Below, piece by piece: positions 1 to 43,922 of a stretch of 64,000 nucleotides of DNA; positions within the stretch are counted from its first letter, which is position 1; each line of letters starts with the position of its first letter. The DNA comes from an uncultured Planctomycetales bacterium (GTDB taxonomy: Bacteria > Omnitrophota > Gorgyraeia > Gygaellales > Profunditerraquicolaceae): positions 12,946 to 76,945 of the forward strand of contig CAZIUK010000003.1 in NCBI GenBank assembly GCA_964542785.1, written 5' to 3'. The translations under genes were made by a program, and so were the position numbers. A model generated the notes under the pieces. That model was not told where the DNA came from, made no database searches, and saw only the letters and a program-made list of their open reading frames with translations.

Positions 1-6
1 ATTAGT

Positions 7-3000
7 ATGCGTTCTTTAGAAGATTTTAAGCTTAAAAAGAACCCACACGGGCAATACCGAGTAGATGATTTTTATTCTGTTTTAAAATATCTTAAATCTG
101 AATATCCCGAAGATATTTTATTTCTCTTTACCTCAACCGATTTAACTTCAAAATTTTATAGCCTAGTCCCTTATTACATCTTTGGCCGGGCGTGGATAGA
201 AGATAAAGTAATAGTTACCTCTATTTATCAATTCCATTCTTTTTCTGCTGAATTATTCAAAGAGCGTATTTATAAGCAGATTCTTCATGAATTAGGTCAT
301 ATATTAGGGCTTGATGATTGTCTTGATTCTAATTGTGCTATGCGTTTTTCTAGAAATATTATGGAATTGGATGAGAGAAAAAAAGAGTTTTGTAGCGGAT
401 GCAGGGGTTTTCTTAAGGTAGAATTAAGCAATTTCCGTGAGAATGACGGCGCTTATACCGCTAATAGTATTTATCTAATAGGGTCAGAAAAAGGCTTACA
501 GGGTGTTAGTTATTTTAGCCTTTATCTTTCGGGATCTGAGGATAAAGAAGGGTTTTTTGGCAATCTTACTAAGCAAGTGGTAGCTTACCATGGGTATAAA
601 GAGGTTGTAGAGTATGAATGTAGCCTGCAAGTTCATCAAAAAGCATTGCACGATATTTATGCAAAAGAGGTTAATTTTAAGACAGGATTAAGAAGGGATT
701 TAGAAACTTTAAAGAGACCTAGATTACCTAAAGAAACTAAAATAGAAAATGTATATCCTTTTAGGCTTTACAGCAAAGAGAGGATTGTAAGTAAGGCAGA
801 TATAGAAAACATAGAGTATTTAAAAGAAAGTCTAAAACGAAATATATACTACGTTAATGCTCCGTCGTTAAGAAAAGATCAGATTATTTTTAGGGTTAAG
901 GACCTTGTTAAAATAGTTTCGTTTATTAAAGCAGAAATAAACAAGCGTCTTCCCAAATTACAGATAATAAATATTTCTGTTTATGGGTCATATCTTTTTA
1001 GCGATGAGGAAGTTGTCCCAAGCGATATAGATATAATTGTTATTGTTGGCGGGAATTACTTTAGTACCGGCATTGAGATCCCGATTAGCCGTTTATGGAT
1101 ACCTTCTTTTGGCAATCTACGTTTGGCTAAGCAGTTTTCTATTTATGTTATGGGCGACGAAAATCTTAAGGACGGCATTTTGGATGAGACTGCAATTTTT
1201 AGCCCGCAGGAAAAAGTTAGATGGCTTGCAACGCAGAAGAGAGTTGTTGAGAATACCTCTTTTGTTTTATACAGAAGGAATGTTGTTTTAGACGGTTGTG
1301 ATTTTATAGCAAACGAAGAGATTTACCGCAGAAATATCTTAGCGCGTGTTTACGACCTTCTTTATAATGCCTACCGTAGGATGTATCTTCATCAACTTAA
1401 GACTAATGAAAAAGAGTTTGAAAGGTTTAAAATTGCTACTACTCGCTTATTAGACGCAGCATTATTTTTAAAAGACCATAAGCCTGTTAGTTTTGATTGC
1501 GAGGAGATATTTAACTTAAGAAAGAGGTTTGAAGAGACCTACGTGATAGACCGTAAGATGGCAAAGTTGGAAGTTCAAAGGGCATGGGTTCAATTATCAG
1601 AGGAATACTCTAGATTTTTAGGAGTTTCTAATTACCGCGATAATGGAGGCAGTTATAAAAATACAAAGCAGGGGTATAGTTGCCCTTTTTTTACAGTAGA
1701 TAGACATCAGGAGGCGTATACCCTAATTCAAGAGTATGTAAAGATAATTGATAAGCTACCTGTACTTATTAACTTTGATGCTCGTTTTGATATAGGGCAA
1801 ACAATTCCGCTTTTAATTGCAGGCCGTAATTGGATATCTTTCCTATTGGATAGTAAGCTAATCCGGAGTTGTTATTTTATTTCAAACAGGCCTAAGTATA
1901 GTAGCTTTATTTTGCATTATGACAATAAAGGAATGATTTTAAAGAGCAATAGTCTAAATTCTTTAGATTGCGCTGAAGAGAATGCTATTGTCAGCATTGA
2001 CTTAGACTATATTATTTCGAAAGATATTCCGGAAGAGATAGACGAAAGTAGGATAGCTTTAGTGGTTAATAGTATATTTAGAATTTTGCGGGAGAATAAT
2101 ATAAAGCCTTCTATGGTTATTGTATTGCGTTCTTCGGACTCCATTCTATCCGCTTTAGAGTGGAGAGCAAGGGCGAGGATTGAATCTTGTTTTCTAGAAT
2201 TTTTTGTGGAGATTAGAAGGAATACCGAATTAGAAAACGAGGCACAAGCTAGGCAGAAGGTTTTAAATAAGGCTACCCTTAAGAAGATAAAAGAGGAGGA
2301 TAATGCTAAGATAAGTATAGTCCTTGGTAATAAGTTAAGGACTTTTACTCTTTATAGATGGGTTAGGATATTTGATAGCATCCTTTTTTCTCTTGATAAA
2401 GAGAGTTCTTCCTTAAAGGGAATGGTTAAAGATATAGAAAGTTTCCGGTTTAGCAATAATTGCTTATCTAAAATACAGGGTTTTATGAATTTGGTAAAAG
2501 ACTCAAGGTTAGAGGAGAAAAAAGAGTCTTTCAGGAGGCTCCTTGTTGCTAAAGAGTTTATAGGGTTAGGAAGGGTTAATTTGGCGGTAGAATCAATGCA
2601 GGCGGTAGCTTTGTTAATAAGGTCGCGTATTGCTGATATTGAGTCTATGAGAGAGAGATTGTTTAAAGTTAGAAAAGAGCTTTTAACATTATCTAAAAAT
2701 AGATTGGAGAGGGTTCAAGGAGCTATTAGAGAAGTAACGGCAGGTTATTGCTATTCTAAAGATAGTAGTTATCTTAAGCAGTCTTTATTTCGGCTATTTA
2801 GATGGCCTTTTTTAGGGGAGCCGGATTTTATAGGGGTACGTAATCAGATTAAGCGCTTAGGAATAATCGTAAATAATCTGCAAAAGAATAAAGCTAGAGG
2901 GCTTCTTTTTGAAAGATTAAAGTTGATAGAGTCTATTTTATCTGAGGCGTTATTAGAGAATGAGTTTACAACAGATTATAGAAATAAGGTTAAATCTTTT

Positions 3001-3423
3001 AGCGGGAGGTTAGAAGAGTTTGATGTTTTATTTAAGGAGTGGGCCGTAAAAAATAGCCTTATTCGAGGCTCTCCGAGGTATTGGAGGGCGCGCCTCTTTA
3101 AGGCTCTCTTTATCTCGGAGAAATCCCCTTGTTTTGCTGCCTGCGATACTATGCTCTTAGTCATCAAGGTTACGAATTTTAGGTTGATTATTCATAGTTT
3201 AATTAAAAATAACCGCTCTAATCTTTTAGGGTTTATTCTTGGTTTTTTAAAATCAAACCCAGATATGCATTGCGCAAAAGATATTACCGGTAAAAATAGG
3301 AATCAATTCCTTATGGAGCTTATAGCAAATGCCTCTTCTGATTTTAATTTATTAGAAAAAGCCAAGGCAGAAGATATAGTAAACCTTTATAAGGCGTTTT
3401 TAATCAAGTTTCCTGGAAAATAG
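7..3423 (+). CDS. Multidomain fusion protein: archaemetzincin-like Zn-metallopeptidase N-terminus, Pol-beta-type nucleotidyltransferase core, possible ureohydrolase-fold relic and a long helical C-terminus
   Basis: 1138-aa ORF. Residues 94-133, HELGHILGLDDCLDSNCAM-x16-CSGC, fit the archaemetzincin signature HExxHxxGx3Cx4CxM...CxxC. Residues 327-342, GSYLFSDEEVVPSDID, fit the minimal NTase motif G[SG]-x(9-13)-DxD. RRMYLH (Rx4H) lies in the following helical segment. Residues 700-1138 are unassigned. Confidence 0.6.
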   Translation: MRSLEDFKLKKNPHGQYRVDDFYSVLKYLKSEYPEDILFLFTSTDLTSKFYSLVPYYIFGRAWIEDKVIVTSIYQFHSFSAELFKERIYKQILHELGHILGLDDCLDSNCAMRFSRNIMELDERKKEFCSGCRGFLKVELSNFRENDGAYTANSIYLIGSEKGLQGVSYFSLYLSGSEDKEGFFGNLTKQVVAYHGYKEVVEYECSLQVHQKALHDIYAKEVNFKTGLRRDLETLKRPRLPKETKIENVYPFRLYSKERIVSKADIENIEYLKESLKRNIYYVNAPSLRKDQIIFRVKDLVKIVSFIKAEINKRLPKLQIINISVYGSYLFSDEEVVPSDIDIIVIVGGNYFSTGIEIPISRLWIPSFGNLRLAKQFSIYVMGDENLKDGILDETAIFSPQEKVRWLATQKRVVENTSFVLYRRNVVLDGCDFIANEEIYRRNILARVYDLLYNAYRRMYLHQLKTNEKEFERFKIATTRLLDAALFLKDHKPVSFDCEEIFNLRKRFEETYVIDRKMAKLEVQRAWVQLSEEYSRFLGVSNYRDNGGSYKNTKQGYSCPFFTVDRHQEAYTLIQEYVKIIDKLPVLINFDARFDIGQTIPLLIAGRNWISFLLDSKLIRSCYFISNRPKYSSFILHYDNKGMILKSNSLNSLDCAEENAIVSIDLDYIISKDIPEEIDESRIALVVNSIFRILRENNIKPSMVIVLRSSDSILSALEWRARARIESCFLEFFVEIRRNTELENEAQARQKVLNKATLKKIKEEDNAKISIVLGNKLRTFTLYRWVRIFDSILFSLDKESSSLKGMVKDIESFRFSNNCLSKIQGFMNLVKDSRLEEKKESFRRLLVAKEFIGLGRVNLAVESMQAVALLIRSRIADIESMRERLFKVRKELLTLSKNRLERVQGAIREVTAGYCYSKDSSYLKQSLFRLFRWPFLGEPDFIGVRNQIKRLGIIVNNLQKNKARGLLFERLKLIESILSEALLENEFTTDYRNKVKSFSGRLEEFDVLFKEWAVKNSLIRGSPRYWRARLFKALFISEKSPCFAACDTMLLVIKVTNFRLIIHSLIKNNRSNLLGFILGFLKSNPDMHCAKDITGKNRNQFLMELIANASSDFNLLEKAKAEDIVNLYKAFLIKFPGK

Positions 3424-3588
3424 GGGGGTCTTTTTTGTAAGGGGGAAGGATTTGCAAGAAATTAAGAAGGGTTTTGTTTTTTATTTTAGAAGAGTAGTTG
3501 TTTGTTTCTGTTATATTGTATCGGAGTTTATGATATAATAATTTAGAGTTTAAGCAGGAAAAGCTACAGAGAGAAAGGATGTTAGAGT

Positions 3589-3945
3589 ATGGATGAGCGT
3601 AGAGCTTACCCTAGGATGAGAGTGGATAAAAATGCGGCTTGTACGATTGAAAACCGCTTTACTCCGCTTGCCTGTAATGTTGATGATATAAGTTTAAGTG
3701 GAGTAAGGATTACGATGTCAAAGAATCTTTTCCCGGAGGCTTTTTCTAATATAACCCTGGATATTCCGGAAACTTTATCTTTTAATGTCGGAACGCATGT
3801 CGCCTGGCATGATGAATACGAAGGAAAAAACACATATGGCCTTGCCTTCAATAGGTTAGATGATGGGGATAGAGATAAAATAGCCATTTTTATAAAAGAT
3901 AATTTGTTTAAGACTTTAAGTAAAGAATGGTGGAGGGGCTTATAA
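3589..3945 (+). CDS. PilZ domain protein (putative c-di-GMP receptor)
   Basis: 118 aa. Both PilZ motifs are present: RRAYPR (RRxxxR) and DISLSG (DxSxxG). Confidence 0.8.
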   Translation: MDERRAYPRMRVDKNAACTIENRFTPLACNVDDISLSGVRITMSKNLFPEAFSNITLDIPETLSFNVGTHVAWHDEYEGKNTYGLAFNRLDDGDRDKIAIFIKDNLFKTLSKEWWRGL

Positions 3946-3946
3946 T

Positions 3947-4633
3947 ATGTATGAACGCAGGAAGATATCCAGATGGCGCATTGATAAGCCGGCGAGGATT
4001 AAGTTTGAAGGATCCGTTTCTTTTATTGATTGCTTGGTCAAAGATATTAATTTTAAAGGCATGCAGATTGTAATGCCTTTAAGATTTAAGGCAGATACTT
4101 ATATAAAATTTAAGTTAAAATTGTCAGATCTTTTTTCTATAGAGAGTGAGGCATGGATAGCTTGGCATAAAAATAGCGATAGGCATAACATTTACGGCTT
4201 TTTATTTACAAGACTTACTGATGCAGATAAAGAAGTTATTTATAAATTTGTTTATCAGAGTGTCCCTGAAGCAATTTCGCATAATTTGTGGAAGGATGCT
4301 TTAAGGGAAGGAGGTGAAGATATGAATGACCGTAGGGTTTTCCAGAGGTTTAATATTCGTTTTTCTGTTAGGTTGTTTGATTTAAATAGCGGATATGAGT
4401 TTACCGGAGAGACAAGCGATATAAGCGCTAAAGGTCTAGGGGTATGGTTAAAAGACGATATACCTCCTAATACTCCTTTGGAGGCTTGGCTGAAGATCCC
4501 CGATAAAGGTGAACCTTTATACACAAGGGGGAGCGTGGCCTGGTCAAAGCCTGACCTTCAGGGTGAACACCGTTTAGGCATAAGCCTTGAACGGGCTGAC
4601 CTTATGGGTTTATCTAGGATATTGAGGATTTAG
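3947..4633 (+). CDS. Tandem PilZ domain protein
   Basis: 228 aa. Domain 1 has RRKISR and DINFKG (Ser replaced by Asn). Domain 2 has RRVFQR and DISAKG. The start lies 2 nt after the preceding PilZ gene. Confidence 0.8.
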   Translation: MYERRKISRWRIDKPARIKFEGSVSFIDCLVKDINFKGMQIVMPLRFKADTYIKFKLKLSDLFSIESEAWIAWHKNSDRHNIYGFLFTRLTDADKEVIYKFVYQSVPEAISHNLWKDALREGGEDMNDRRVFQRFNIRFSVRLFDLNSGYEFTGETSDISAKGLGVWLKDDIPPNTPLEAWLKIPDKGEPLYTRGSVAWSKPDLQGEHRLGISLERADLMGLSRILRI

Positions 4634-4670
4634 AAAAATATTTTAAAAATTTTAATCAGATTATAAAAAT

Positions 4671-5981
4671 ATGATAAGATCTAAGTTTTGCCTCTTTATT
4701 TTTGGTACTTTTTTTGCGTTTGCGATAGTATTATCAGGCTGTCTGCAAAAAAACAGGATAGATAAACCTACCCTTACTCTCTGGCATTGGATGACTGACC
4801 GAGAAACTCCCTTTAAAGAGTTAGCTAAAAAGTATGAAGCTAAGACAGGGATAAAGATAAACCTTGAGCTTTATGCGCCCTCAGAGGCTTATGCGCAAAA
4901 GGTGCGTGTTGCAGCACAAGGAGCAAACCTGCCTGATATCTTTGCCATCTTAGGGGAAAAGAGGGATCTTGCATCTTTTATTAAAGCCGGGCTTATCCTC
5001 GATCTTACCTCTTATATGCAAGAAGATTCCTTTAGGTGGGAGGGGCTTTTTTATCCTAAGGCGATAGCTGTAAATAGTTTTAGCAAGGATGACAGCTATG
5101 GAGTTAGTCCAGGGATTTATGGCGTGCCGATAGATATAATGACTATTCAAATGCTTTATAATAAGTCTTTATTTAAGAGCCTGGGGTTAAATCCGAATAA
5201 CCCCCCGAAAGATTTTACAGAAATTTTAAATATAGCAAAGAAGATTAAGGAAGAAGGTTTGCAAGGGTTTGTTTCCGGCTTTAGCGAGGTATGGTTGGTT
5301 TATTGCTTTGCCGAAAACTATGCCTTTAATATTATGGGTCCGGAAAAGATGTTAGCTACCATAAAAGGAGAGGTTCCTTATACTGATTCAGACTGGGTTA
5401 GAGTTTTAGAATTATTTAAGGATATGCAGGAATCCGGACTGTTGGCTAAGGGGATAGTTACTATGGTTAATAAGACCGCTGAACAGCTTTTTGCTAATGA
5501 GAAGGCGGTATTTGCTTTTAATGGCTCTTGGTCTGTAAATGTCTATAAAGCGATGAACCCAAAATTAAATTACGATGTTTTTTTTCCTCCTCGGGCAAGC
5601 TATAATTATCCTATGGTTATAAGGGGAGGGGCTGGTTCTTCATTTGTGGTTAATGCACGTTCGCCTAATAAAAAAGAGGCGGTAAATTTTTTACGTTGGC
5701 TTACTGAAGATGAGCAGCAGGTATATCTATCTGAAGCAACTAATAATCTTCCAGCGAATAAAAAGGCAACAGGTTCCCTAAGTGGAGTTTTAGCCGGTTT
5801 TGCCAAGGGTATAGATAGCGCCATACATCCTAATCTTTGGGAAGAAAGGGAATCGTCGTCGGTAATTGATGCTTTTGGCAGGGGGGTGCAGTCAATTATT
5901 ATAGGCAAGAAGACTCCTGAAGAGGCGGCTTTAGAGATCCAGAAGATAAAAGAGAAGGAGTTAATTAGAAAGCGCAAATAA
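4671..5981 (+). CDS. ABC transporter extracellular solute-binding lipoprotein (CUT1 sugar type)
   Basis: 436 aa. It has a signal peptide with a lipobox-like LSGC and overall sugar-binding-protein character. Two MalF/MalG-type permeases follow immediately. Confidence 0.8.
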   Translation: MIRSKFCLFIFGTFFAFAIVLSGCLQKNRIDKPTLTLWHWMTDRETPFKELAKKYEAKTGIKINLELYAPSEAYAQKVRVAAQGANLPDIFAILGEKRDLASFIKAGLILDLTSYMQEDSFRWEGLFYPKAIAVNSFSKDDSYGVSPGIYGVPIDIMTIQMLYNKSLFKSLGLNPNNPPKDFTEILNIAKKIKEEGLQGFVSGFSEVWLVYCFAENYAFNIMGPEKMLATIKGEVPYTDSDWVRVLELFKDMQESGLLAKGIVTMVNKTAEQLFANEKAVFAFNGSWSVNVYKAMNPKLNYDVFFPPRASYNYPMVIRGGAGSSFVVNARSPNKKEAVNFLRWLTEDEQQVYLSEATNNLPANKKATGSLSGVLAGFAKGIDSAIHPNLWEERESSSVIDAFGRGVQSIIIGKKTPEEAALEIQKIKEKELIRKRK

Positions 5982-5982
5982 G

Positions 5983-6864
5983 ATGAAGTTAGGGCCTAAT
6001 TTAGAAAATTATGCTTTGATTTTCCCGGCGTTATTGATCTTCTCTATATTTTATATCATTCCTTTTATATGGATTTTTCAGTTAAGTTTTTTTGATTGGG
6101 ACGGGATATTGCCCTATAAGTCTTTTTGCGCTCTGGCTAACTTCAAGGAGGTTCTTTTTGAGGATTTTAGTTTTTGGCAATCTATGCGTAACGCAGGGTA
6201 TATTACTCTTGTAGCGCTCTCTTTTCAGAATCTTTTAGCGTTCTTGTTAGCTTTGGCGTGTGACCGTCAGATACGTATGAAGAATTTTTATCAAGCGGTA
6301 TTTTTTATCCCCCCTATACTCTCTGAAATAGTTGTAGGTATAGTATGGCGTTTTATCATTAGCGATGTTGAAGGAGCTAATATAGTTAACCGTATCCTCT
6401 GCGGGATTGGGCTGCAAGAGCTTGCGCGCAACTGGTTGGCTGATCCTGATATTGCGCTTACCACTATATCTATAGTGCATAGCTGGAAGGGGTTTGGCTG
6501 GGGATTTTTAATCTTTCTTGCCGGGCTACAAACTATCCCTAAAGAGCTTTACGAGGCGGCGCGCATTGACGGGGCTAATGCTTGGGATTCCTTTAAAAAG
6601 ATTACCCTTCCTTCAATGGTGCCGGTAATAGTATTAGTATCAATATTAACAATTTTAGGGACGATGCAGGCATTTGCATTGATTATAGGGCTTGTAGGAG
6701 GGGAGTTTGCCGGGCATACCTCGGTTCCGGTTTTAAGGATATTAGCGGTTATGCGCGATTCATCGCGCTTTGGCTATGCCTGCGCACAAGGGTTGATCTT
6801 TGGGGCAGTTTTGGTAATAATCTCATTTATGCAATATAGGTTTTCTGGTAAATATCGTAAATAA
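5983..6864 (+). CDS. Sugar ABC transporter permease (MalF/UgpA-like)
   Basis: 293 aa and polytopic. The EAA-loop-like sequence is ELYEAARIDGANAWDSFKKITLP. Confidence 0.85.
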   Translation: MKLGPNLENYALIFPALLIFSIFYIIPFIWIFQLSFFDWDGILPYKSFCALANFKEVLFEDFSFWQSMRNAGYITLVALSFQNLLAFLLALACDRQIRMKNFYQAVFFIPPILSEIVVGIVWRFIISDVEGANIVNRILCGIGLQELARNWLADPDIALTTISIVHSWKGFGWGFLIFLAGLQTIPKELYEAARIDGANAWDSFKKITLPSMVPVIVLVSILTILGTMQAFALIIGLVGGEFAGHTSVPVLRILAVMRDSSRFGYACAQGLIFGAVLVIISFMQYRFSGKYRK

Positions 6865-7712
6865 TGGAAAGCGCTGTTTATTATAAAATAAAAAGATTTA
6901 TACAAGGTTTTTTTACGCACCTATTCCTTATCAGCGTGGCTTTAACCTGTCTGTATCCTTTACTATGGATATTCTTTGGTAGTTTTAAGACACAAGAGAG
7001 TATTTTTAATAGTATCTCGATTATCCCTGAAAAATTTCATTTTGAAAATTATTATTTTGCGTTAATTAAAAGTGATTTTAGCCGTTATTTTTTTAATAGC
7101 GTTTTCTATACTATTATCGTAGTAATTGCGGTAGTAATCATTTCTTCAATGGCAGGGTATGCCTTTAGCCGTTTGCGTTTCTTTGGGAGAAGGGCGGTAT
7201 TTTTAATATTTATAGCAGCGATGATGATTCCTTTACCCGGAAGTTTCGTAGCCCTATTTATCCTATTAAATAAATTGCATCTGCGCGATACTCCTTTAGG
7301 GTATATTTTATGTATGGTTAATGCCGGGCTGCCCGTAAGCATATTTTTGCTAAAGACATTTTTTGACACGATGCCTAAAGAGATTGAAGATGCCGCGCGC
7401 ATTGACGGTTGTTCTAAAATAGGTATTTGGCGGCATATAGCCTTGCCGCTTGCGCGGCCTGCCCTAGCGGTAGTAATTATTATTAACGTTTTAAATGTTT
7501 GGAATGAATATATCCTGGCTTTGGTAGTTTTTGACAACAAAAACTTTATGCCCCTTCAGCGGGCGTTAGTAGTTTTTCAGGGGGAGTTTTTAACTAACTA
7601 TCCGCTTTTAATGGCAGGACTTACCATAACAGTCATGCCCATAATTATTATCTATATCCTGATGCAAAAGCATATAGTCAAGGGGGTAACTTCCAAGGTC
7701 TTTTTTGGATAA
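6864..7712 (+). CDS. Sugar ABC transporter permease (MalG/UgpE-like)
   Basis: 282 aa and polytopic. The EAA loop is EIEDAARIDGCSKIGIWRHIALP. The start overlaps the upstream stop. Confidence 0.85.
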   Translation: MESAVYYKIKRFIQGFFTHLFLISVALTCLYPLLWIFFGSFKTQESIFNSISIIPEKFHFENYYFALIKSDFSRYFFNSVFYTIIVVIAVVIISSMAGYAFSRLRFFGRRAVFLIFIAAMMIPLPGSFVALFILLNKLHLRDTPLGYILCMVNAGLPVSIFLLKTFFDTMPKEIEDAARIDGCSKIGIWRHIALPLARPALAVVIIINVLNVWNEYILALVVFDNKNFMPLQRALVVFQGEFLTNYPLLMAGLTITVMPIIIIYILMQKHIVKGVTSKVFFG

Positions 7713-19403: not shown

Positions 19404-22400
19404 ATGAAGCCAAAATTATCCGAAAATGCATTGAAAGTTTTAGAAAGAAGGTATTTGAAAAAAGATGAAGAGGGGAAAGTTGTAGAAACCCCGCAAGAGC
19501 TTTTTAGAAGAGTGGCCTCTGCAATTGCTTCGGCAGATAGGTTATACGGAAAAACAGAAAAAGAGATTAAGGTGTTAGAGGAAGAGTTTTACAATATGAT
19601 GGCTTCTTTGGAGTTTCTCCCTAATTCCCCTTGCCTTATGAACGCCGGTAAGGATTTAGGGCAACTATCTGCTTGTTTTGTCCTTCCGATAGAAGATTCC
19701 ATGGACTCTATATTTGAGAGTCTTAAAGCAACTGCTATGATCCATAAGTGCCTTGTCCCAGAAACTATTGTTATGGTTGATAGCGGTTTAAAGGAATTAA
19801 AAGATGTTTCTCCCGGAGAGAGGATACTTACCGAAGAGGGGTATTATAAGGTAAGCGAAATACATAAAAATGGAACCAAAGATATTTTTGAAGTAGTTAC
19901 TGAAAAAGGATATGCAATTAGAGGCACTGCTAAGCACCGCCTATTTATTATTGATGAAAATGGCAATTATGCATGGAAAAAGATAAAAGATTTAAGCCCG
20001 GATGATTGGGTGGTTTTAAAGCCCGCTAAGTGGCATGGTAGAGAAGTAGTAAAGCTTTCTAATTTTAAGTATGATTATCATCCGGTTAATAACGGGTCTT
20101 TTAACTTAAAGAGGGTAAAGATTCCAAGCTTCCTCTCTGTGCAATTGGCAGAATTATGGGGGATGTATATAGGCGATGGCTCTAACCATCGCGACGGAAT
20201 CAGGTTTAGCGTTGGAGAAGAGAGCCGGGAGCTTGTTGATTACATCTCTAAAATCTCCTTAGAACTATTTAACAAAAAACCAAGTGTGAGTAGATATGAA
20301 AAGAAGAGTTGTTATGAGGTAGCTCTTCTTAGCGTTGAACTTAAAGAATGGTTTGCGTCTTTAGGCATAACCAAAGCCTCAGCGCGTAGCGCAAGGATCC
20401 CTAAGATTCTTAAAAACGCGGGAGAAGATTATATATGTGGTTTTTTAAGAGGGCTTTTTTCTACGGATGGCTGTATAAGGAAGAGCGGGCATATTGCTTT
20501 AAGTACTACATCAAGCGCTTTGGCAGAAGAATTACAGGTCATTATGCTTTATTTAGGGATACCTACGCAAAAAACATACCGTCCGGATACAGATAGTTAT
20601 CAAGTCTCAGTTTGTAATAAGTCAGGATTTGCTATTTTTAGGGATAAGATAGGATTTTTAATCCGCGCTAAGCAAGAAAGGTTAAGTTCCGTTAATATTG
20701 AGGAGATTTTTACTAAAGGGCAGATAATCCCGAACCAGAAGAATCGTTTAAGTTCTTGGTATAATAGCTTGGAAGATATCTTAGAAAGAAGAAGGGCGGC
20801 AGATTTTATAGAAGGAATAATCCATAGGCCATCCGGCTTTCGCCAGTTAACCCGGCAGAAGGCATTGCTTATGCAAGAAGATGGCTTAGGCCCCGAATTC
20901 CTTAAGCAGTTTTTACAGGATAACTTATTCTATACGAAAATAAGCAGTATAAAACATTGCGGCAAGAGCGTAGTGTATGACTTAACTGTTCCTTATAAAC
21001 ATTCTTATGTGGCGAATGGTTTTGTTAGCCATAATTCTGGTGGAGGGACGGGTTTTTCCTTTTCGCGCCTTCGGTCGAAAAATGCGGTAGTTAAGACTAC
21101 TGGGGGTGTTGCCTCGGGGCCTATATCTTTTATGCGCGTTTATGATGCGGCGACCGAAGCGGTAAAACAAGGCGGGACAAGGCGTGGCGCTAACATGGGC
21201 ATATTAAGGGTAGACCACCCGGATGTCTTAGAGTTTATTACCTGTAAAGATAATAATAAGCAGATTAATAATTTCAATATCTCTATCGCCTTAACCGATG
21301 AATTTATGCGCAAGTTAGAAAAGAATGAGGATTATGATTTGATAGATCCCCATACTCAAAAGGTAGTAGAGAAGGTTAACTCTAAGGAGGTATTTGACTT
21401 AATAGTAAAGCAGGCGCATAAGAACGGAGAGCCTGGGGTGATCTTTATTGACAGGATGAATGAATTTAATCCTACCCCTAAATTAGGCAAGTATGAGTCT
21501 ACTAATCCTTGCGGGGAGCAGGTCTTACTTCCTTATGAGAGTTGTGATTTAGGTTCAATAAACCTTTCTTTGATTTGCAAGCAAAGAGACGGGCTTTATG
21601 AGATTGATTGGAATAGGTTAAAAGAGGTGACGCATTTAGCTGTGTATTTTTTAGATAATCTAATTGACGAGAATAAGTTTCCTCTTTTGCAAATTGAAAA
21701 GGCGACAAAAGCGACCCGCAAGGTTGGGTTAGGGGTTATGGGTTGGGCTTCTCTGCTTATACGTTTGAATATACCTTATAATAGCGACGAGGCGGTTGCC
21801 TTGGCTGAGAAGGTTATGTCTTTTATTTTAGATGAAGCGGTTAAAAAATCTTTAGAGTTAGGCAAGGCAAAGGGTGCCTTTCCTGCATTTAAAGGAAGTA
21901 TCTATGATAAGAAGAACGCAACGGCTAAGATGCGCAATGCCACTCTTACTACGATAGCTCCGACAGGGACAATTAGTATTATTGCCGGTCCGTGCTCTTC
22001 TGGGATTGAGCCGTTGTTTGCGATATCTTATTACCGTAATGTAATGGACAATGATAAGTTAGTAGAGGTTGATCCTTTATTTGAAGAGGTGGCGCGTTTG
22101 CGCGGTTTTTATAGCCGTGAATTGATGGAGAAGATTGCTAAGAGCGGTTCCCTTGCGCATATTGAAGAGGTGCCTGAGGATGTAAAAAAGATTTTTGTTA
22201 CTGCCCACGATATATCTCCTGAATGGCATGTGCGTATGCAGGCGGCATTTCAGAGGTTTGTACATAATGCTACTTCAAAGACAATAAACTTTCCAGAGGA
22301 GGCTTCTATCGAAGATGTCCGTGAGGCCTATCTTTTAGCTTATGATTTAGGGTGTAAGGGGATAACTGTTTATCGCGATAAGAGCCGAGAGGAACAGGTC

Positions 22401-23003
22401 TTAAATATTGGTAGCTCTAAAGAAGACAAGAGCATAAAGACAGATACCTTTAAGCAGGATTTTAAGAAAGAGATTGCGCCTAGGCCTCGACCGGAGGTAA
22501 TTTTTGGCACAACGACAAAGGTCCCAACCGGCTGCGGGAATCTTTACGTTACTATAAATGTTGACGAAAAAGGAGAGCCATTTGAATTGTTTACTCAAAT
22601 GGGTAAAGCCGGGGGGTGCGCTGCTTCCCAACTTGAAGCCATAGGCAGATTAGTCTCTTTAGGTTTTCGTACAGGAGTAGAGGTCAAATCTATTATTGAA
22701 CAGCTTAGGAATATCCGCTGTCCGTCTCCTTCTTGGGAGAAAGGGCAACGTATATTTTCTTGTGCTGATGCTATTGCCAGAGTAATAGAGAGAAGGTTGG
22801 TAAATACGCAAACCTCAAAAGAAGGGCTTGAAGTAGCTCCAATAGCGATGAAGCACTCTTCTGATGATGAGCAAGTAGTAACTGAGATTAATAATAGCAC
22901 TAGCCGCGGGGATATTGTTGGAGTATGCCCTGATTGCGGGGGAGCTCTTCGCCATGAAGAAGGGTGTATGAAGTGTTATGCCTGCGGGTTTTCTAAGTGT
23001 TGA
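19404..23003 (+). CDS. nrdJ: Adenosylcobalamin-dependent (class II) ribonucleotide reductase, intein-containing precursor
   Basis: 1199 aa. Extein motifs are LPNSPCLMNAG, SGGGTGFSFSRLR, the thiyl-Cys context TNPCGEQ, and TIAPTGT. There is a C-terminal Cys4 ribbon (CPDCGG...CMKCYACG). Confidence 0.9.
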   Translation: MKPKLSENALKVLERRYLKKDEEGKVVETPQELFRRVASAIASADRLYGKTEKEIKVLEEEFYNMMASLEFLPNSPCLMNAGKDLGQLSACFVLPIEDSMDSIFESLKATAMIHKCLVPETIVMVDSGLKELKDVSPGERILTEEGYYKVSEIHKNGTKDIFEVVTEKGYAIRGTAKHRLFIIDENGNYAWKKIKDLSPDDWVVLKPAKWHGREVVKLSNFKYDYHPVNNGSFNLKRVKIPSFLSVQLAELWGMYIGDGSNHRDGIRFSVGEESRELVDYISKISLELFNKKPSVSRYEKKSCYEVALLSVELKEWFASLGITKASARSARIPKILKNAGEDYICGFLRGLFSTDGCIRKSGHIALSTTSSALAEELQVIMLYLGIPTQKTYRPDTDSYQVSVCNKSGFAIFRDKIGFLIRAKQERLSSVNIEEIFTKGQIIPNQKNRLSSWYNSLEDILERRRAADFIEGIIHRPSGFRQLTRQKALLMQEDGLGPEFLKQFLQDNLFYTKISSIKHCGKSVVYDLTVPYKHSYVANGFVSHNSGGGTGFSFSRLRSKNAVVKTTGGVASGPISFMRVYDAATEAVKQGGTRRGANMGILRVDHPDVLEFITCKDNNKQINNFNISIALTDEFMRKLEKNEDYDLIDPHTQKVVEKVNSKEVFDLIVKQAHKNGEPGVIFIDRMNEFNPTPKLGKYESTNPCGEQVLLPYESCDLGSINLSLICKQRDGLYEIDWNRLKEVTHLAVYFLDNLIDENKFPLLQIEKATKATRKVGLGVMGWASLLIRLNIPYNSDEAVALAEKVMSFILDEAVKKSLELGKAKGAFPAFKGSIYDKKNATAKMRNATLTTIAPTGTISIIAGPCSSGIEPLFAISYYRNVMDNDKLVEVDPLFEEVARLRGFYSRELMEKIAKSGSLAHIEEVPEDVKKIFVTAHDISPEWHVRMQAAFQRFVHNATSKTINFPEEASIEDVREAYLLAYDLGCKGITVYRDKSREEQVLNIGSSKEDKSIKTDTFKQDFKKEIAPRPRPEVIFGTTTKVPTGCGNLYVTINVDEKGEPFELFTQMGKAGGCAASQLEAIGRLVSLGFRTGVEVKSIIEQLRNIRCPSPSWEKGQRIFSCADAIARVIERRLVNTQTSKEGLEVAPIAMKHSSDDEQVVTEINNSTSRGDIVGVCPDCGGALRHEEGCMKCYACGFSKC
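19749..21035 (+). mobile_element. Intein (429 aa) with a LAGLIDADG homing endonuclease, inserted before the GGGTG motif of NrdJ
   Basis: It starts at Cys (CLVPETIVMVD), has block B TAKHRLF, and ends ...FVSHN with Ser as the +1 residue (SGGGTG). The two LAGLIDADG motifs are LWGMYIGDGS and FLRGLFSTDGC. The 1287-nt length is in frame. Confidence 0.85.
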
Positions 23004-41036: not shown

Positions 41037-43922
41037 ATGGAAAAGAAAGAGAGAATAAACATAATAATTTCAGTAATTCTTATTCTTACGGCAGCATCCC
41101 TGTTTTTTCCGCTTTCTTCTGCCTTTGCCGGCCAATTTACCGGAGGTATCGGCGACGGAGATGCTTGTGCAGAGGTCTCTCTCTCCTCTCTGGCTACGGT
41201 TCCAGAAGTAGTTTCAAAGATTATCCGGGCAGGGGAGGAGATATTATCTATCAGCCGCTTAAATAACAAAGTTACCGTTGTCTTGACTAACCCCTACCCT
41301 AATAATAACCTTAAACCCGGCCAGTATATTGTGATTTATACCGGGATCTCTGGGACTCCTTCTTTTAACGGCAGATTCTTAATTGATAGCGTCTTAAGCC
41401 AAAGCGAGTTTACCTATCAGCAGGGAGGCAGTAATGAGTCAGGGTCTATAGGAAGCTTTAGTTTTGCCGGAGGAGATTTTAGTACCCTTACTAGCTGGGA
41501 GGCTGATTTACCGTATGATTTAGCCAGTACAGGCACGCCGCATATCGCCGTATGTTATAATGATTGGGTATCAGGGCTTAAAGATAACCTTGTGGTTGAA
41601 GGACATACAACCACCCCTAAATATTATATAAAAATTACTCCTTTTAGGCTTGACCGAAATACTGGGAAACCAAAGTCAGGCTTTTTTATTGCTCCTTCAA
41701 GCGGAAATGCAATAATCCTCCAGGATAATGCTGATTTGGTGCTTGATAGTATTGAAGCTACTGCTCCGGTAGTGATCAATGCCGGAGTAGCCCGGGTTGA
41801 TGATCGTTCCATCTATTCAAAGTTAGAGGTAGGTAGCGGCGCGACCTTGGCTCTTAGCGGGGCGAATTTTGGTAATTTAAAAGAGATGGTTATAAACGCA
41901 GGTTCAACCCTTGAATATCTTGACGGTGATTCTTCTTCTTTAGACAACCCAATAGCCTTGCTTAACCAGGATCACCATCATCTTAAGCTTTCTAAGGGGT
42001 TTTTTAAGTTACCGGCAGATAATTTTACTATTATGGGTAATATTGATATCGGATCACAGGCAAGCTTGGATGCGACAGAAAATAATTATAATATCAAAGT
42101 TGCAGGAGATTGGTTCTGTTTGGGGAATTTTAATTCGCGCGTGGCAGGAGTGGAATTTAACGGAACTAACCAAAAGATATCCGGGTCAACTTCTTTCTTT
42201 AATTTTAGAAAAGATAACTCAGGCCCTGGTACCTTAATCTTGACCTTTGAAAGCGCATCTCTTCAGACTGTCAAAGGCAGGCTTGACTTAGGAAGAGGAA
42301 GCAGGGAAAATTTTTTAAAGTTGCGCAGCAGCCAGGAGGGGAGTCAGTGGGAGCTTGACCTTCAGGGAGATAGCTTAGCCGGGTTTGTAAATGTAAAGGA
42401 TTCTGATGCTTCCAGGGGAAATAAGGTTTATGCTACAGCTTCTTTGGATTCCGGGAATAATGATAATTGGGAGTTTAACAGCGCTGAAGGAGGGCCTATC
42501 CAGTCTGTGAGCGTTTCTCCTTCAAGCGGGTATCGAAAGATCGGAGAGAGTGTAGGGTTTACAATTAAAATCAAGCCGCAATATTCTAACAGCACTCTTT
42601 TGTATTATGAATCTTATTTTGGAAACCATTTAATTGAGCTAACCAGGGAAGAAGACGGTATAACTTTTAATGGTTCCTATATAGTTAAAGAGGGTGATCC
42701 TGATATAGCTGATCCTTCTTTGTCAGGCAGGCTTGAGATTATGCCTTTTGGGGGAGCTACATCTCTTTTTAGCGCGATTTTATCTAAAACCACTCTGTAT
42801 ATAGATGCTAATAAGCCGGTAGTAAGTAGTGGAAACATCTTAGTTACCACTAGTCCTGATAATGGTGAATTTTATCGCGCTGGCGAAGATATTACTCTTA
42901 CCTGGGATAATTCTGCTTCTGGAGACGGGAGCCATAATCCGGATATTGCCCTAGTTACCGCTGATTTTTCAGCTTTAGGCGGAAGTTCTGCTGTAGAGAT
43001 GTCAGAGAGCGAAGGTATTTATACCGCAAGCTATACAGTTTCTGCTGAGAGTATAAATGGTACCCATGATATCTTAGTTACTGTTACGGATAAGGCCGGC
43101 AACCAGACCTCTCTTGCCGCCCCTACAAAGGTAAGAGTTGTCTCTGGCTCTCTTACGCTTACCAGCCCCACTACCCCGGTAAGCTATGTTGCCGGAACAA
43201 CCCAGAAGATAACCTGGAATGCTTCTGGAGATATAAGTACGGTAAATTTAAAATATTCCATTGATTCAGGACAAAGTTATAAGACCATTAACACTGTAGG
43301 GTCTTTGACCGGGGGGAATACTTGTGACTGGGTAGTTCCTAGCGATATAACTTCTAAGGCCCGGGTTAAGGTTGAGGATACTGCCATTAAGCAGGTTTAT
43401 AGCGCCTCAAGCGTAGATTTTAGCATTGTTTATCCTTCTGTTACTATTACCAGTCCTAATGGAGGGGAGTCTTGGACAGCAGGCTCTAAACAGAATATTA
43501 CTTGGACAACGAATTCACCTTTAGTGACTCATCTTAAACTTGAATATTCTGTTGATGGAGGATCAAGCTGGAATTTAATTGCCGCAGCAGTTCCTAATAC
43601 AGGATCATATTTATGGAAACTGGATAACCTTTTTGCTGTAGATACTGTTAGGGTAAGGGCGACAGGCTTAGCCCGTAATCAAATGTTAACTTTAGGCGGA
43701 AGCGCTATGGACAAAGTTTCTTCTGGCGCTTGGCTGGAGGATAACTATAAGGTTTTAGCCATAGAGGTCTTAAGTGATTTTAACGCAGGAGACACTCTGC
43801 TGATATCTGGTCTAAAGTTCGGTAATTTTATTGTCTCTCCTGCGAATAACCTGAAGTTAAGCGCTGGAAGTAATTCTGTTATAGATGATAAGAAGATTAC
43901 AGTTATAGCGCCTTCTGTTTAG
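41037..43922 (+). CDS. Large secreted protein with repeated Ig-like/beta-sandwich modules
   Basis: 961 aa with an N-terminal signal/anchor. Repeated modules of the type ITSPNGGESWTAGSKQNITWT and LTSPTTPVSYVAGTTQKITWN are present. Confidence 0.55.
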   Translation: MEKKERINIIISVILILTAASLFFPLSSAFAGQFTGGIGDGDACAEVSLSSLATVPEVVSKIIRAGEEILSISRLNNKVTVVLTNPYPNNNLKPGQYIVIYTGISGTPSFNGRFLIDSVLSQSEFTYQQGGSNESGSIGSFSFAGGDFSTLTSWEADLPYDLASTGTPHIAVCYNDWVSGLKDNLVVEGHTTTPKYYIKITPFRLDRNTGKPKSGFFIAPSSGNAIILQDNADLVLDSIEATAPVVINAGVARVDDRSIYSKLEVGSGATLALSGANFGNLKEMVINAGSTLEYLDGDSSSLDNPIALLNQDHHHLKLSKGFFKLPADNFTIMGNIDIGSQASLDATENNYNIKVAGDWFCLGNFNSRVAGVEFNGTNQKISGSTSFFNFRKDNSGPGTLILTFESASLQTVKGRLDLGRGSRENFLKLRSSQEGSQWELDLQGDSLAGFVNVKDSDASRGNKVYATASLDSGNNDNWEFNSAEGGPIQSVSVSPSSGYRKIGESVGFTIKIKPQYSNSTLLYYESYFGNHLIELTREEDGITFNGSYIVKEGDPDIADPSLSGRLEIMPFGGATSLFSAILSKTTLYIDANKPVVSSGNILVTTSPDNGEFYRAGEDITLTWDNSASGDGSHNPDIALVTADFSALGGSSAVEMSESEGIYTASYTVSAESINGTHDILVTVTDKAGNQTSLAAPTKVRVVSGSLTLTSPTTPVSYVAGTTQKITWNASGDISTVNLKYSIDSGQSYKTINTVGSLTGGNTCDWVVPSDITSKARVKVEDTAIKQVYSASSVDFSIVYPSVTITSPNGGESWTAGSKQNITWTTNSPLVTHLKLEYSVDGGSSWNLIAAAVPNTGSYLWKLDNLFAVDTVRVRATGLARNQMLTLGGSAMDKVSSGAWLEDNYKVLAIEVLSDFNAGDTLLISGLKFGNFIVSPANNLKLSAGSNSVIDDKKITVIAPSV

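Follow-up and report, generated by a model that had tools for sequence, protein, structure and literature searches.

Organization of the Locus

The window, the whole 64-kb stretch of DNA that was analyzed, opens within a long ORF that is followed on the same strand by two PilZ-domain genes (table 1). The ORF is present at 7–3423 on the plus strand as the initial annotation gave it, but neither its length of 1,138 aa nor a start at the ATG of position 7 holds. Bases 1–6 carry no stop in frame 1 ("att agt atg"), and JGI contig L002, which matches positions 1–3910 of the window with one mismatch, adds 1,648 bases upstream in which the frame remains open for 551 further codons and then runs off the end of the contig. 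The ATG at position 7 is therefore internal and the protein is at least 1,689 aa in size; a contig that reaches beyond L002 was looked for and not found. Neighborhood comparisons drew on only two related loci, L001, which lacks flanks, and L002, which represents the same population, and sampling of the lineage is very sparse, at three related sequences.

The additional sequence of L002 encodes a GlmM/PGM-like mutase, with matches to PGM_PMM domains I–IV and to Arch_GlmM (E = 2e-64, profile positions 70–433 of 444). The visible order is GlmM/PGM-like sugar-phosphate mutase, junction peptide, peptidase M54, junction peptide, an 81-aa spacer with an ANT-like nucleotidyltransferase (NTase), junction peptide, truncated ureohydrolase-like module with a helical module, and stop. 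Five different modules tile the 1,689 aa, as in multi-enzyme genes, and none is dominant. Absent from the initial annotation were the upstream mutase, the helical module at the C terminus, the recurrence of a junction peptide, and the context of Omnitrophota giant genes.

Table 1. Features at the left end of the window (residues are numbered from the ATG at position 7)
Feature	Position	Strand	Details
3' part of a longer ORF	1–3423	+	Open at the left edge of the window; TAG stop at 3421–3423
M54 module, C-terminal two thirds	1–432	+	HELGH 286–300, then GxxD, Cx4CxM, CSGC 391–402
Junction peptide FRENDGAY (aa 143–150)	433–456	+	About 7 aa past the end of M54 homology
81-aa segment (aa 152–232)	460–702	+	Homologues detectable in close relatives only
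Polymorphic base	703	+	G in the window (GAA, Glu233), T in L002 (TAA stop)
Module A, Pol-beta-type NTase with C-terminal helical bundle	703–1632	+	GS at aa 327–328, D340, D342, G-x-[DE]-N at aa 383–386
Junction peptide YRDNGGSY (aa 543–550)	1633–1656	+	1 aa past module A homology, 7 aa before module B homology
Module B, truncated ureohydrolase (arginase/agmatinase) fold, ~187 aa	1660–2220	+	Putative metal ligands H567, D591, D595, D665, D667
Module C, conserved helical module, ~400 aa	2221–3420	+	WPFLxEPDFxGxRN ... RGxPRYWRARLYKxxFISE[RK]S
Two PilZ-domain genes	3589–3945, 3947–4633	+	Pfam E = 1.6e-14 and 1.2e-24; 165 bp downstream of the ORF

Identity of the Modules

The call of an archaemetzincin-type peptidase is borne out by a match to PF07998 (E = 5.2e-21; 76 bits against a cut-off of 24.4) that spans aa 14–135 and profile positions 65–191 of 194. 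Because the match begins at profile position 65, the window edge truncates the domain, whose N-terminal third lies upstream. The motifs are located as described, HELGHILGLDDCLDSNCAM at aa 94 and CSGC at aa 129. The correspondence to the archaemetzincin signature, given as HEXXHXXGXXHCX4CXMX17CXXC in PMC3427221, was described as almost exact and holds for HExxH, the Gly, Cx4CxM, and CxxC, but not for the third zinc-binding His, which is replaced by Asp, or for the spacer, which is 16 residues. In an alignment of HELGHILGLDDCLDSNCAM-x16-CSGC with free-standing archaemetzincins, Asp is the third zinc ligand in both the window and P0002, the closest relative; zinc binding by Asp is possible, as described for Asp-zincins (HEXXHXXGXXD; PMC3890501). 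The complete module in L002 scores 85.3 bits against NCBIfam NF033823 archmetzin (profile positions 14–168 of 170), below the cut-off of 145, and is by its sequence a divergent member of the family. It scores 49.5 bits against an NCBIfam family of non-proteolytic archaemetzincin-like proteins. The Asp ligand, the score below the cut-off, and the existence of a non-proteolytic-like family make the proteolytic activity of the module uncertain.

Archaemetzincins are usually stand-alone proteins of ~180 aa. The best 120 M54 relatives are all stand-alone (112–266 aa), with termini that align with the ends of the module, and an M54 domain inside a long protein was found only in the window ORF and P0002. 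Embedding in only two sequences implies that M54 is no general processing enzyme of Omnitrophota giants, and it may simply be another cargo module. Endopeptidase activity and zinc-dependent self-cleavage are documented for the archaemetzincin AMZ-tk (PMC4681839).

HMMER matches to module A begin at about aa 233, and the preceding 81-aa segment may extend that module at its N terminus or act as a spacer. The NTase motif lies where it had been reported, with GSYLFSDEEVVPSDIDIIVIV at aa 327. Single-sequence Pfam searches of module A were below threshold (Polbeta, E = 0.025). The identification as an NTase is instead upheld by a profile of the 37-member family, which matches solved NTases in the PDB (9xbd_E, E = 7.8e-6; also 2rff and MntA 5yep), and by the fold of an AlphaFold model (pLDDT 92.4), in which an NTase domain is joined to a helical bundle as in ANT(3'')(9) and AAD(9). 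As modeled, module A resembles ANT/AadA-type adenylyltransferases and not cyclases. Across the 37 family members, G327 is retained by 36, and residue 328 is always S or G. D340 and D342 never vary, and 33 members have D or E at position 385. The RRMYLH segment is at aa 457 as described, but its reading as a HEPN-type Rx4H motif fails, with R457 kept in two and H462 in one of the 37 members; the HEPN Rx4-6H motif is not conserved across the family, and the shape of the helical bundle alone is HEPN-like.

Dozens of module A homologues are free-standing (270–310 aa) and end where the junction peptide starts. One belongs to an operon that encodes small enzymes (GT1, methyltransferase, HIT, NUDIX, kinase, and His_Phos), and in P0019, two neighbors from that operon are fused with their order kept.

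The motifs VDRHQ (aa 564), FDARFD (aa 590), and SIDLDY (aa 663) of module B are positioned as the initial annotation had them, and its call of a possible ureohydrolase-fold relic agrees with our assignment of module B to the arginase fold. No Pfam or NCBIfam family matched module B at threshold; UPF0489 (E = 0.014) and Arginase (E = 0.065) were hit by one homologue only, and NCBIfam pept_arginase scored 16.9 bits against a cut-off of 350. Ligands of module B were assigned from the order of motifs, not from superposition. At position 593, the window copy has Arg and P0039, P0070, and P0204 have His; the full binuclear-metal ligand set (H; DxHxD; DxD) is incomplete in the window copy. Module C recurs in giant Omnitrophota proteins of 2.4–7.8 kaa, and in other giants, modules A, B, and C occur in different orders and combinations. 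At the level of sequence, these free-standing or differently ordered homologues show that the modules are autonomous.

A Recurrent Peptide at Module Joints

The peptide [FY]R[DE]N[GD]G[SA]Y occurs three times in the 1,689 aa, each time at a joint between modules, and six-frame translation of the 64-kb window uncovered no further copy. The chance expectation is 0.0056 copies, and none of 200,000 shuffles had three; the pattern was defined post hoc and was confirmed in independent sequences. In P0002, the peptide likewise occurs three times at module joints, and in P0009, it directly follows module A and precedes a different module. Its codons vary synonymously (GAC AAC GGC GGT, GAT AAT GGA GGC, and GAT AAT GGG GGG), which implies selection on the peptide rather than on an RNA signal. 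The peptide occurs non-randomly, sits at joints, and is conserved at the amino acid level. YRDNGGSY is disordered in both structure models: pLDDT is below 50 where model A ends, and the residues just after the peptide, with which model B begins, are below 50 as well. Of the three sites in the window ORF, one reads N-D-G and the other two have G-G, as do all sites in P0002, P0009, and P0017.

Candidatus Omnitrophota MAGs account for nearly all named homologues, for P0002, and for most carriers of module C; P0003 is labeled Elusimicrobia. In other Omnitrophota giants, these modules are delimited by different short motifs. In P0070, SSSP[VA] (also written SSSP[VI]) occurs 14 times and bounds module B at residues 4732 and 4921; a Metallophos domain begins 5 aa past one copy and an HATPase_c domain ends 1 aa before another. 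The motif [AS]SSP occurs 20 times in P0020, where it flanks module C, RSEAR flanks module A in P0056, [LM]DNGG occurs six times in P0017, and [SE]D[PRA][AV]M is a further punctuation-type motif in other giants.

Positions 1–3423 of the window are best described as the 3'-terminal part of a giant multi-enzyme gene of the Omnitrophota type, with modules that are separate proteins in other organisms. We hold this reading, together with the identities of the modules and the junction motif, with high confidence.

Candidate Processing of the Product

A class of giant Omnitrophota proteins termed multi-enzyme metabolic clusters, in which PGM/PMM domains are common, has been defined in a preprint whose accessible text sets a length of at least 10,000 aa (10.64898/2026.06.07.730766). 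The giants are a puzzle of recent date, and published work raises the question whether they are single megaproteins or are cut up. Post-translational cleavage has been suggested, as far as the accessible text of the sources goes (10.64898/2026.06.07.730766; 10.1101/2023.11.21.568195; PMC10066038), but the accessible text of neither preprint (10.64898/2026.06.07.730766; 10.1101/2023.11.21.568195) describes cleavage points, and one states that such information is absent.

We suggest that the R-D-N-G-G-x-Y-type peptide could be a site of proteolytic processing between modules. The gene product would then behave as a polyprotein, with an operon fused into one frame and its product cut into single enzymes. 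One candidate for the protease is the embedded M54; a peptidase domain farther upstream in this ORF, or one encoded at another place in the genome, would be equally possible. We judge the chances about even that this tail of a giant multi-enzyme gene yields a polyprotein with processing sites at the junction peptides. The narrower claim, that the peptides are the cleavage sites, is plausible and falls somewhat short of even. The joint between modules B and C has no junction peptide, the 81-aa segment intervenes between the second junction and module A, and one of three sites departs from N-G-G, all of which count against processing. The broadest model, in which Omnitrophota multi-enzyme giants are bacterial polyproteins, that is, fused operons with lineage-specific punctuation peptides cut by cognate proteases, and here by the embedded Asp-variant archaemetzincin, is tentative and on balance unlikely.

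The strongest competitor is a megaprotein that stays uncleaved, its modules linked for substrate channeling, co-localization, or fixed stoichiometry, and R-D-N-G-G-x-Y serving as a flexible hinge or as a docking or recognition element. Giant ORFs of Omnitrophota have so far been treated as very long proteins, and peptides map to a 39,678-aa ORF of V. archaeovorus. The motif-free joint between modules B and C fits this alternative, as does the lack of a protease assignable to the motif, and Gly/Asn-rich turns are common linkers. But a plain linker need not keep eight residues between proteins that are 65–69% identical in their best-conserved domain, nor need it be swapped for another, equally fixed motif in each lineage. 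Module ends also fall within 1–7 aa of the termini of free-standing homologues, and a chain such as P0070, in which a 12-TM MatE transporter is joined to kinases and hydrolases of the cytosol, would be hard to fold as one. An uncleaved product is a real possibility, to which we give distinctly less than even weight.

Processing could instead be due to a double-glycine (C39-type) or other peptidase encoded upstream in the ORF or elsewhere, with M54 as cargo. C39 peptidases cut after Gly-Gly, and the G-G at most sites is consistent with such an enzyme, as is the rarity of embedded M54. According to the accessible preprint literature on the giants, C39 domains form the commonest architecture cluster in giant Omnitrophota proteins and lie near N-termini. 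In opposition, the 1,689 aa show no C39 domain, one site is D-G, and the SSSP[VI] and RSEAR motifs of other lineages cannot be C39 sites. Double-glycine leaders have a hydrophobic pattern before G-G that R-D-N does not seem to resemble. We consider this route improbable.

Two further explanations are very improbable. The view of the initial annotation, a discrete fusion of ~1,138 aa with three functions (peptidase, NTase, and ureohydrolase relic) that is coupled to PilZ via a nucleotide signal, is right in that all three domains are real and that the PilZ genes follow directly in the same orientation, with no clear terminator in between. But the ORF extends at least 551 codons further upstream, and in other genomes its modules are freely combined with other, unrelated partners. 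The signaling connection found no supporting evidence. Module A resembles the ANT/AadA type and not cyclases, and a search for a related locus with PilZ neighbors found none. Nor is the ORF likely to be an artefact, whether an assembly chimera, frameshift-fused neighbors, or a reassigned stop codon: the TAA at codon 233 does split it in the JGI assembly, which is the kind of split by which the initial annotation proposed to recognize an artefact, but two independent assemblies agree over 3,910 bases bar that one, the TAA does not give a sensible pair of genes (Met382, the next called start, is inside the NTase module and 3' of the catalytic motif), a second MAG has M54 in a long ORF with the same junction peptide (P0002, M54 69% identical), other genes in the window use all three stops (TAA 24, TGA 7, TAG 6), and chance is not expected to give a 5-kb open frame at 35% G+C.

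Returning to the polyprotein, what is new is a candidate punctuation peptide where autonomous enzyme modules meet; other giants show the same logic with other motifs. If processing is real, many enzymes would be co-produced stoichiometrically from a single ORF, a strategy of expression otherwise associated with viruses, and if M54 is the protease, the family would gain its first defined physiological substrate. If processing is not real, the gene is still a clear case of an operon fused into a megaprotein, with an M54 module and a minimal ureohydrolase as its rare content. The motifs make the question directly testable, and giants could be divided at them for structure prediction and annotation.

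Comparison with Known Systems

The M54 module shares with archaemetzincins (AmzA, AMZ-tk, and human AMZ1/2) the cysteine-rich zinc-site signature of HExxHxxG, Cx4CxM, and CxxC and a full-length domain match. It differs in its third ligand (Asp instead of His), its spacer (16 instead of 17), its score relative to the NCBIfam cut-off, and its location inside a long multi-enzyme ORF.

Like ANT(3'')(9)/AadA, AAD(9), ANT(4'), and MntA/HepT, module A has an N-terminal Pol-beta NTase domain (GS...DxD and a third carboxylate) and a C-terminal helical bundle, in agreement with the profile and fold matches. Sequence identity to these proteins is only 10–14%, and the NTase domain of module A carries an insertion, with an additional strand/helix region at the N terminus. 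In contrast to MntA/HepT-type pairs of NTase and HEPN proteins, its family does not keep Rx4H.

Motifs of the module B family (xxH, DxHxD, and DxD) have the same order and spacing as in ureohydrolases (arginase, agmatinase, and the peptide arginases OspR/FlmR) and UPF0489. Module B is ~187 aa instead of ~300 aa, and the window copy has Arg in place of the central His (FDARFD).

As in the published Omnitrophota giant ORFs (also PMC10066038), homologues are from Omnitrophota, one frame is made up of many unrelated enzyme domains, PGM/PMM domains occur, and module C is common to Omnitrophota proteins of 2.4–7.8 kaa. The published class is of at least 10 kaa, whereas the window ORF is visible over 1,689 aa only; an embedded M54 is not among the domains named in the accessible text of the two preprints, and the junction peptide would supply candidate cleavage points.

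Viral polyproteins, too, have several autonomous enzymes per ORF, a short lineage-specific peptide at joints, and a protease in the same chain. Unlike them, the gene in the window is cellular, that of a bacterium, and cleavage of its product is a prediction from sequence.

Extent and continuity of the giant gene

Most economically, the window is read as starting within a multi-enzyme giant gene of the Omnitrophota type, a structural description in which we have high confidence. The initial annotation read a plus-strand ORF at the start of the window (table) as a 1138-aa fusion of an archaemetzincin, a nucleotidyltransferase (NTase) and a possible ureohydrolase relic. The ORF is present, every motif quoted from it lies at the residue assigned to it, and the domain reading is accurate overall (M54, NTase, ureohydrolase-type fold). 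The framing as a complete tri-functional protein does not hold. The "1138-aa protein" is only the end of a longer ORF, which spans at least 1689 codons because L002, an overlapping JGI contig (Ga0565080_005036, 5558 bp), continues the same frame 551 codons upstream until it runs off the contig end. Positions 1649..5558 of L002 correspond to window 1..3910 with one mismatch. Within the window, no stop codon precedes the ATG at position 7 from which residues are numbered (att agt atg from base 1), and the M54 match starts at profile position 65 of 194; this ATG is not a demonstrated start. The upstream stretch of L002 encodes domains I-IV of a PGM_PMM mutase (best NCBIfam match Arch_GlmM, E=2e-64, profile 70-433/444), a short junction peptide and the N-terminal third of the M54 domain that is missing from the window. 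L002 ends inside the mutase module and the start of the gene lies further upstream; scans for the 5' end returned only the 3.9-kb contig of P0002 from GTDB genomes and no match from metagenomes.

A word-indexed protein search found two relatives only: P0001, a 757-aa JGI gene call on L002 that is 100% identical to the window protein, and P0002, a partial protein of 1320 aa from a Candidatus Omnitrophota MAG with 69% identity over the M54 part. At window base 703 (L002 2351), a G in the window is a T in L002, which changes Glu233 to an in-frame TAA in the JGI assembly. The TAA falls exactly on the N-terminal boundary of the NTase module, and the JGI gene call downstream of it begins at Met382, inside that module. 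Either a nonsense polymorphism, perhaps at strain level, or an error of sequencing accounts for the difference, which does not point to two genes. An artefactual ORF fails against the agreement of two assemblies, the same arrangement in a second MAG (that of P0002) and ordinary use of stop codons. Each of the three stop codons ends genes of normal size within the window, and an alternative genetic code is therefore rejected.

Identity and recurrence of modules

An exhaustive HMMER search with residues 150-1138 as query against 1.84 billion cluster representatives delimited three autonomous modules (A, B and C), each recurring separately. Preceding them, the M54 module is a full-length yet divergent archaemetzincin (85 bits versus an NCBIfam cut-off of 145) with Asp in place of His as third zinc ligand, in the window and P0002 alike. 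The best 120 of 519 M54 relatives from a profile search are all stand-alone proteins of 112-266 aa; M54 is rarely embedded in a long ORF.

Module A is an NTase with dozens of free-standing homologues of 270-310 aa. Across a 37-sequence alignment (A2), there is little or no variation at G327/S328, D340, D342, G383, R424 and G430 and almost none at N443 and R480, and 33 sequences have D or E at position 385. The family profile matches solved NTases (9xbd_E, E=7.8e-6; 2rff; MntA 5yep), and top Foldseek matches of the AlphaFold model (pLDDT 92.4, pTM 0.90) are ANT(4')-IIb, Hailong HalB, AAD(9) and AadA. The Rx4H motif, initially likened to HEPN-type partner domains, is not conserved within this family, and a HEPN RNase as NTase partner is therefore rejected. 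Membership in a defense system is likewise rejected; PADLOC returned only weak NTase-core matches for the window's own module A (PDC-S09, E=1e-4) and no match for two free-standing homologues, module B or module C. One free-standing gene, P0026, belongs to a closely spaced operon encoding small enzymes (GT1, methyltransferase, HIT, kinase, four His_Phos genes, NUDIX and PHP). In this operon a 408-aa protein is encoded ahead of two module A paralogues in tandem. P0019 (1268 aa) fuses the 408-aa protein and a module A NTase in the order of the operon, a Rosetta-stone link. The domain types of the operon are those listed for giant Omnitrophota proteins in two reports (10.1101/2023.11.21.568195; 10.64898/2026.06.07.730766).

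Module B is about 60% of the size of a normal arginase. Its three homologues (P0039, P0070 residues 4747-4919, and P0204) all have FD[AS]HSD and VDLD[YF]LIS, whereas the window copy reads FDARFD. One homologue weakly matches UPF0489 (E=0.014) and Arginase (E=0.065), and the window copy weakly matches the NCBIfam peptide arginase (E=0.0034). Together, the matches and the motif comparison bear out, at the level of fold, the earlier reading of a ureohydrolase relic with His replaced by Arg. P0039 (597 aa) and P0040 (1369 aa) belong to a separate family of signal-peptide-bearing multi-domain proteins with a common N-terminal L-x-x-x-S-[IL]-F-x-P region and a C-terminal domain (...CHI[IV]..SILP..QR.IL..LEQ.MR...). 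Since P0039 carries module B and P0040 carries module A in this shared framework, the two modules look like interchangeable cassettes in that family also.

Searches of Pfam, NCBIfam and PDB sequences with module C gave only coiled-coil noise. Copies of the module are present in P0004-P0008, P0015, P0017 and P0020, proteins in the range of 2.4-7.8 kaa; carriers with a source name are labeled Candidatus Omnitrophota, and P0003, labeled Elusimicrobia, carries it as well. By eye, three Omnitrophota giants share another module (P0002 ~315-513, P0004 ~700-900 and P0005 ~1000-1200; ...W..EH.LFL...P..YP.PGE ... LP[IV]WPVD..G.I...L..W ... P.[FA].YY...K.SL..LLPK), which in P0002 ends just before a VRDNGGDF peptide.

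Coordinates of modules, junctions, punctuation peptides and other genes
Feature	Location	Peptide or size	Remarks
Giant ORF, window part	window 7..3423 (+)	1138 aa	
Module A (NTase)	aa ~233-542		
Module B (ureohydrolase-like)	aa ~552-738		
Module C	aa ~739-1138		helical
Junction, mutase / M54	upstream of window, in L002	...RYRDNGGSY...	
Junction, M54 / next segment	window 433-456	...NFRENDGAY...	
Junction, module A / module B	window 1633-1656	...NYRDNGGSY...	
Punctuation, P0017		[LM]DNGG	6 copies; 1499-aa fragment
Punctuation, P0020		[AS]SSP[VILA]	20 copies; flanks module C at 19 and 456
Punctuation, P0070		SSSP[VA]	14 copies; Pfam domains between motifs
Punctuation, P0056		RSEAR	4 copies; flanks module A
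Punctuation, P0076		[SE]D[PRA][AV]M	7 copies; flanks module A
Punctuation, P0010		SSSP	2 copies; both sides of module C
Punctuation, P0004		N-G-D-G-S	highly over-represented short peptide
Tandem free-standing NTase paralogues	L003 (Logan contig) 3951..6822	276 + 273 aa	4-bp gene overlaps; after 408-aa protein
Two PilZ genes, then putative ABC sugar-transport set	window 3589..7712 (+)		PilZ: one single-domain, one two-domain
Ribonucleotide reductase large subunit, class II-type	window 19404..23003 (+)		intein inside
Long ORF	window 41037..43922	961 aa	
Second very long ORF	window 44023..53370 (+)	3115 aa	

A conserved peptide at module junctions

Variants of one peptide, [FY]R[DE]N[GD]G[SA]Y, occur at joints between modules. 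The peptide lies about 7 aa past the end of M54 homology and, at the next site, 1 aa past module A homology and 7 aa ahead of module B homology; it is disordered at the end of the model of A, as are the residues right after it where the model of B starts. By chance, the giant-ORF protein should contain 0.0056 copies of a looser pattern, R[DEN]N[GD]G, and 200,000 shuffles never produced three. A six-frame translation of the window holds no further instance of the strict pattern. Because the pattern was defined after the data were seen, its recurrence in independent sequences matters. Peptides in P0002 (FRDNGGEY, VRDNGGDF and RRNNGGDY) likewise separate different modules. In P0009, with 57% identity up to where module A ends, HRDNGGS occupies the corresponding position and an unrelated membrane segment follows.

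We propose that the giant-gene product is a polyprotein processed at R-[DE]-N-[GD]-G, and we put the chance that these peptides mark sites of cleavage somewhat short of even. The continuity of the ORF, what the modules are and their autonomy, and the placement, statistics and peptide-level conservation of the motif are observed, whereas cleavage and the choice of protease are inferred. The main rival is that the product stays an uncleaved megaprotein in which the junction peptide is a conserved hinge. A signal in RNA (a stop codon with a Shine-Dalgarno remnant, or an internal start) is rejected: some copies contain TAA and GGAGG (GAT AAT GGA GG), but others read GAC AAC GGC GGT or GAG AAT GAC GGC, and because codons vary at synonymous positions, conservation is at the level of the peptide and not of RNA.

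Punctuation in other giant proteins

Among homologous giants, the most over-represented short words are lineage-specific "punctuation" with protein-sized spacing, mostly 150-850 aa (table). In P0070, for which a 4766-aa piece was scanned against Pfam, Metallophos_2 begins 5 aa past a motif, HATPase_c stops 1 aa short of one, and module B is flanked by motifs at 4732 and 4921. The same chain holds a MatE transporter together with a methyltransferase, a LOG-like enzyme and a histidine-kinase ATPase domain. That each giant has its own over-represented peptide at protein-sized spacing suggests a general punctuation principle in these genes.

Other genes of the window

The two genes downstream of the giant ORF are PilZ genes, as initially annotated, and no terminator was found in the 165-bp gap before them; the speculated functional link to PilZ has no support beyond adjacency. 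The putative ABC set, with roles read by eye, comprises a 436-aa ORF that has a hydrophobic segment at its N-terminus, plus two permease-like ORFs of 293 and 282 aa. The ribonucleotide reductase gene (Ribonuc_red_lgC E=4e-128, TSCPD) encloses an intein with a LAGLIDADG homing-endonuclease domain (Intein_splicing, LAGLIDADG_3). The second very long ORF has no Pfam match at E<=1e-5 and no R-D-N-G-G-type junction peptide, and the 961-aa ORF is Pfam-dark as well. Across the window, 37 of 38 ORFs of at least 150 aa are on the plus strand, GC skew is persistently positive across the first 10 kb profiled, and G+C is 0.347 in the giant-gene tail versus 0.397 in the whole window.

Candidate protease and relation to described giant genes

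If the product is processed, the embedded M54 would be one candidate junction protease. M54 and the junction motif co-occur in both lineages where each was seen, and one archaemetzincin is known to act as an endopeptidase and to cleave itself (PMC4681839). Against this candidate stand the rarity of embedding, the altered zinc site, and an upstream ORF that lies beyond the available sequence; a C39-type or other peptidase outside the sequenced part is equally possible.

The giant gene belongs to a known, recently described kind, termed "multi-enzyme metabolic clusters" in a preprint (10.64898/2026.06.07.730766). West-Roberts et al. (10.1101/2023.11.21.568195) suggested that such proteins are cleaved but gave no information on cleavage points, for which the junction peptide provides a concrete candidate. 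The new and testable elements are the M54 module, the minimal ureohydrolase and, most of all, the punctuation peptides.
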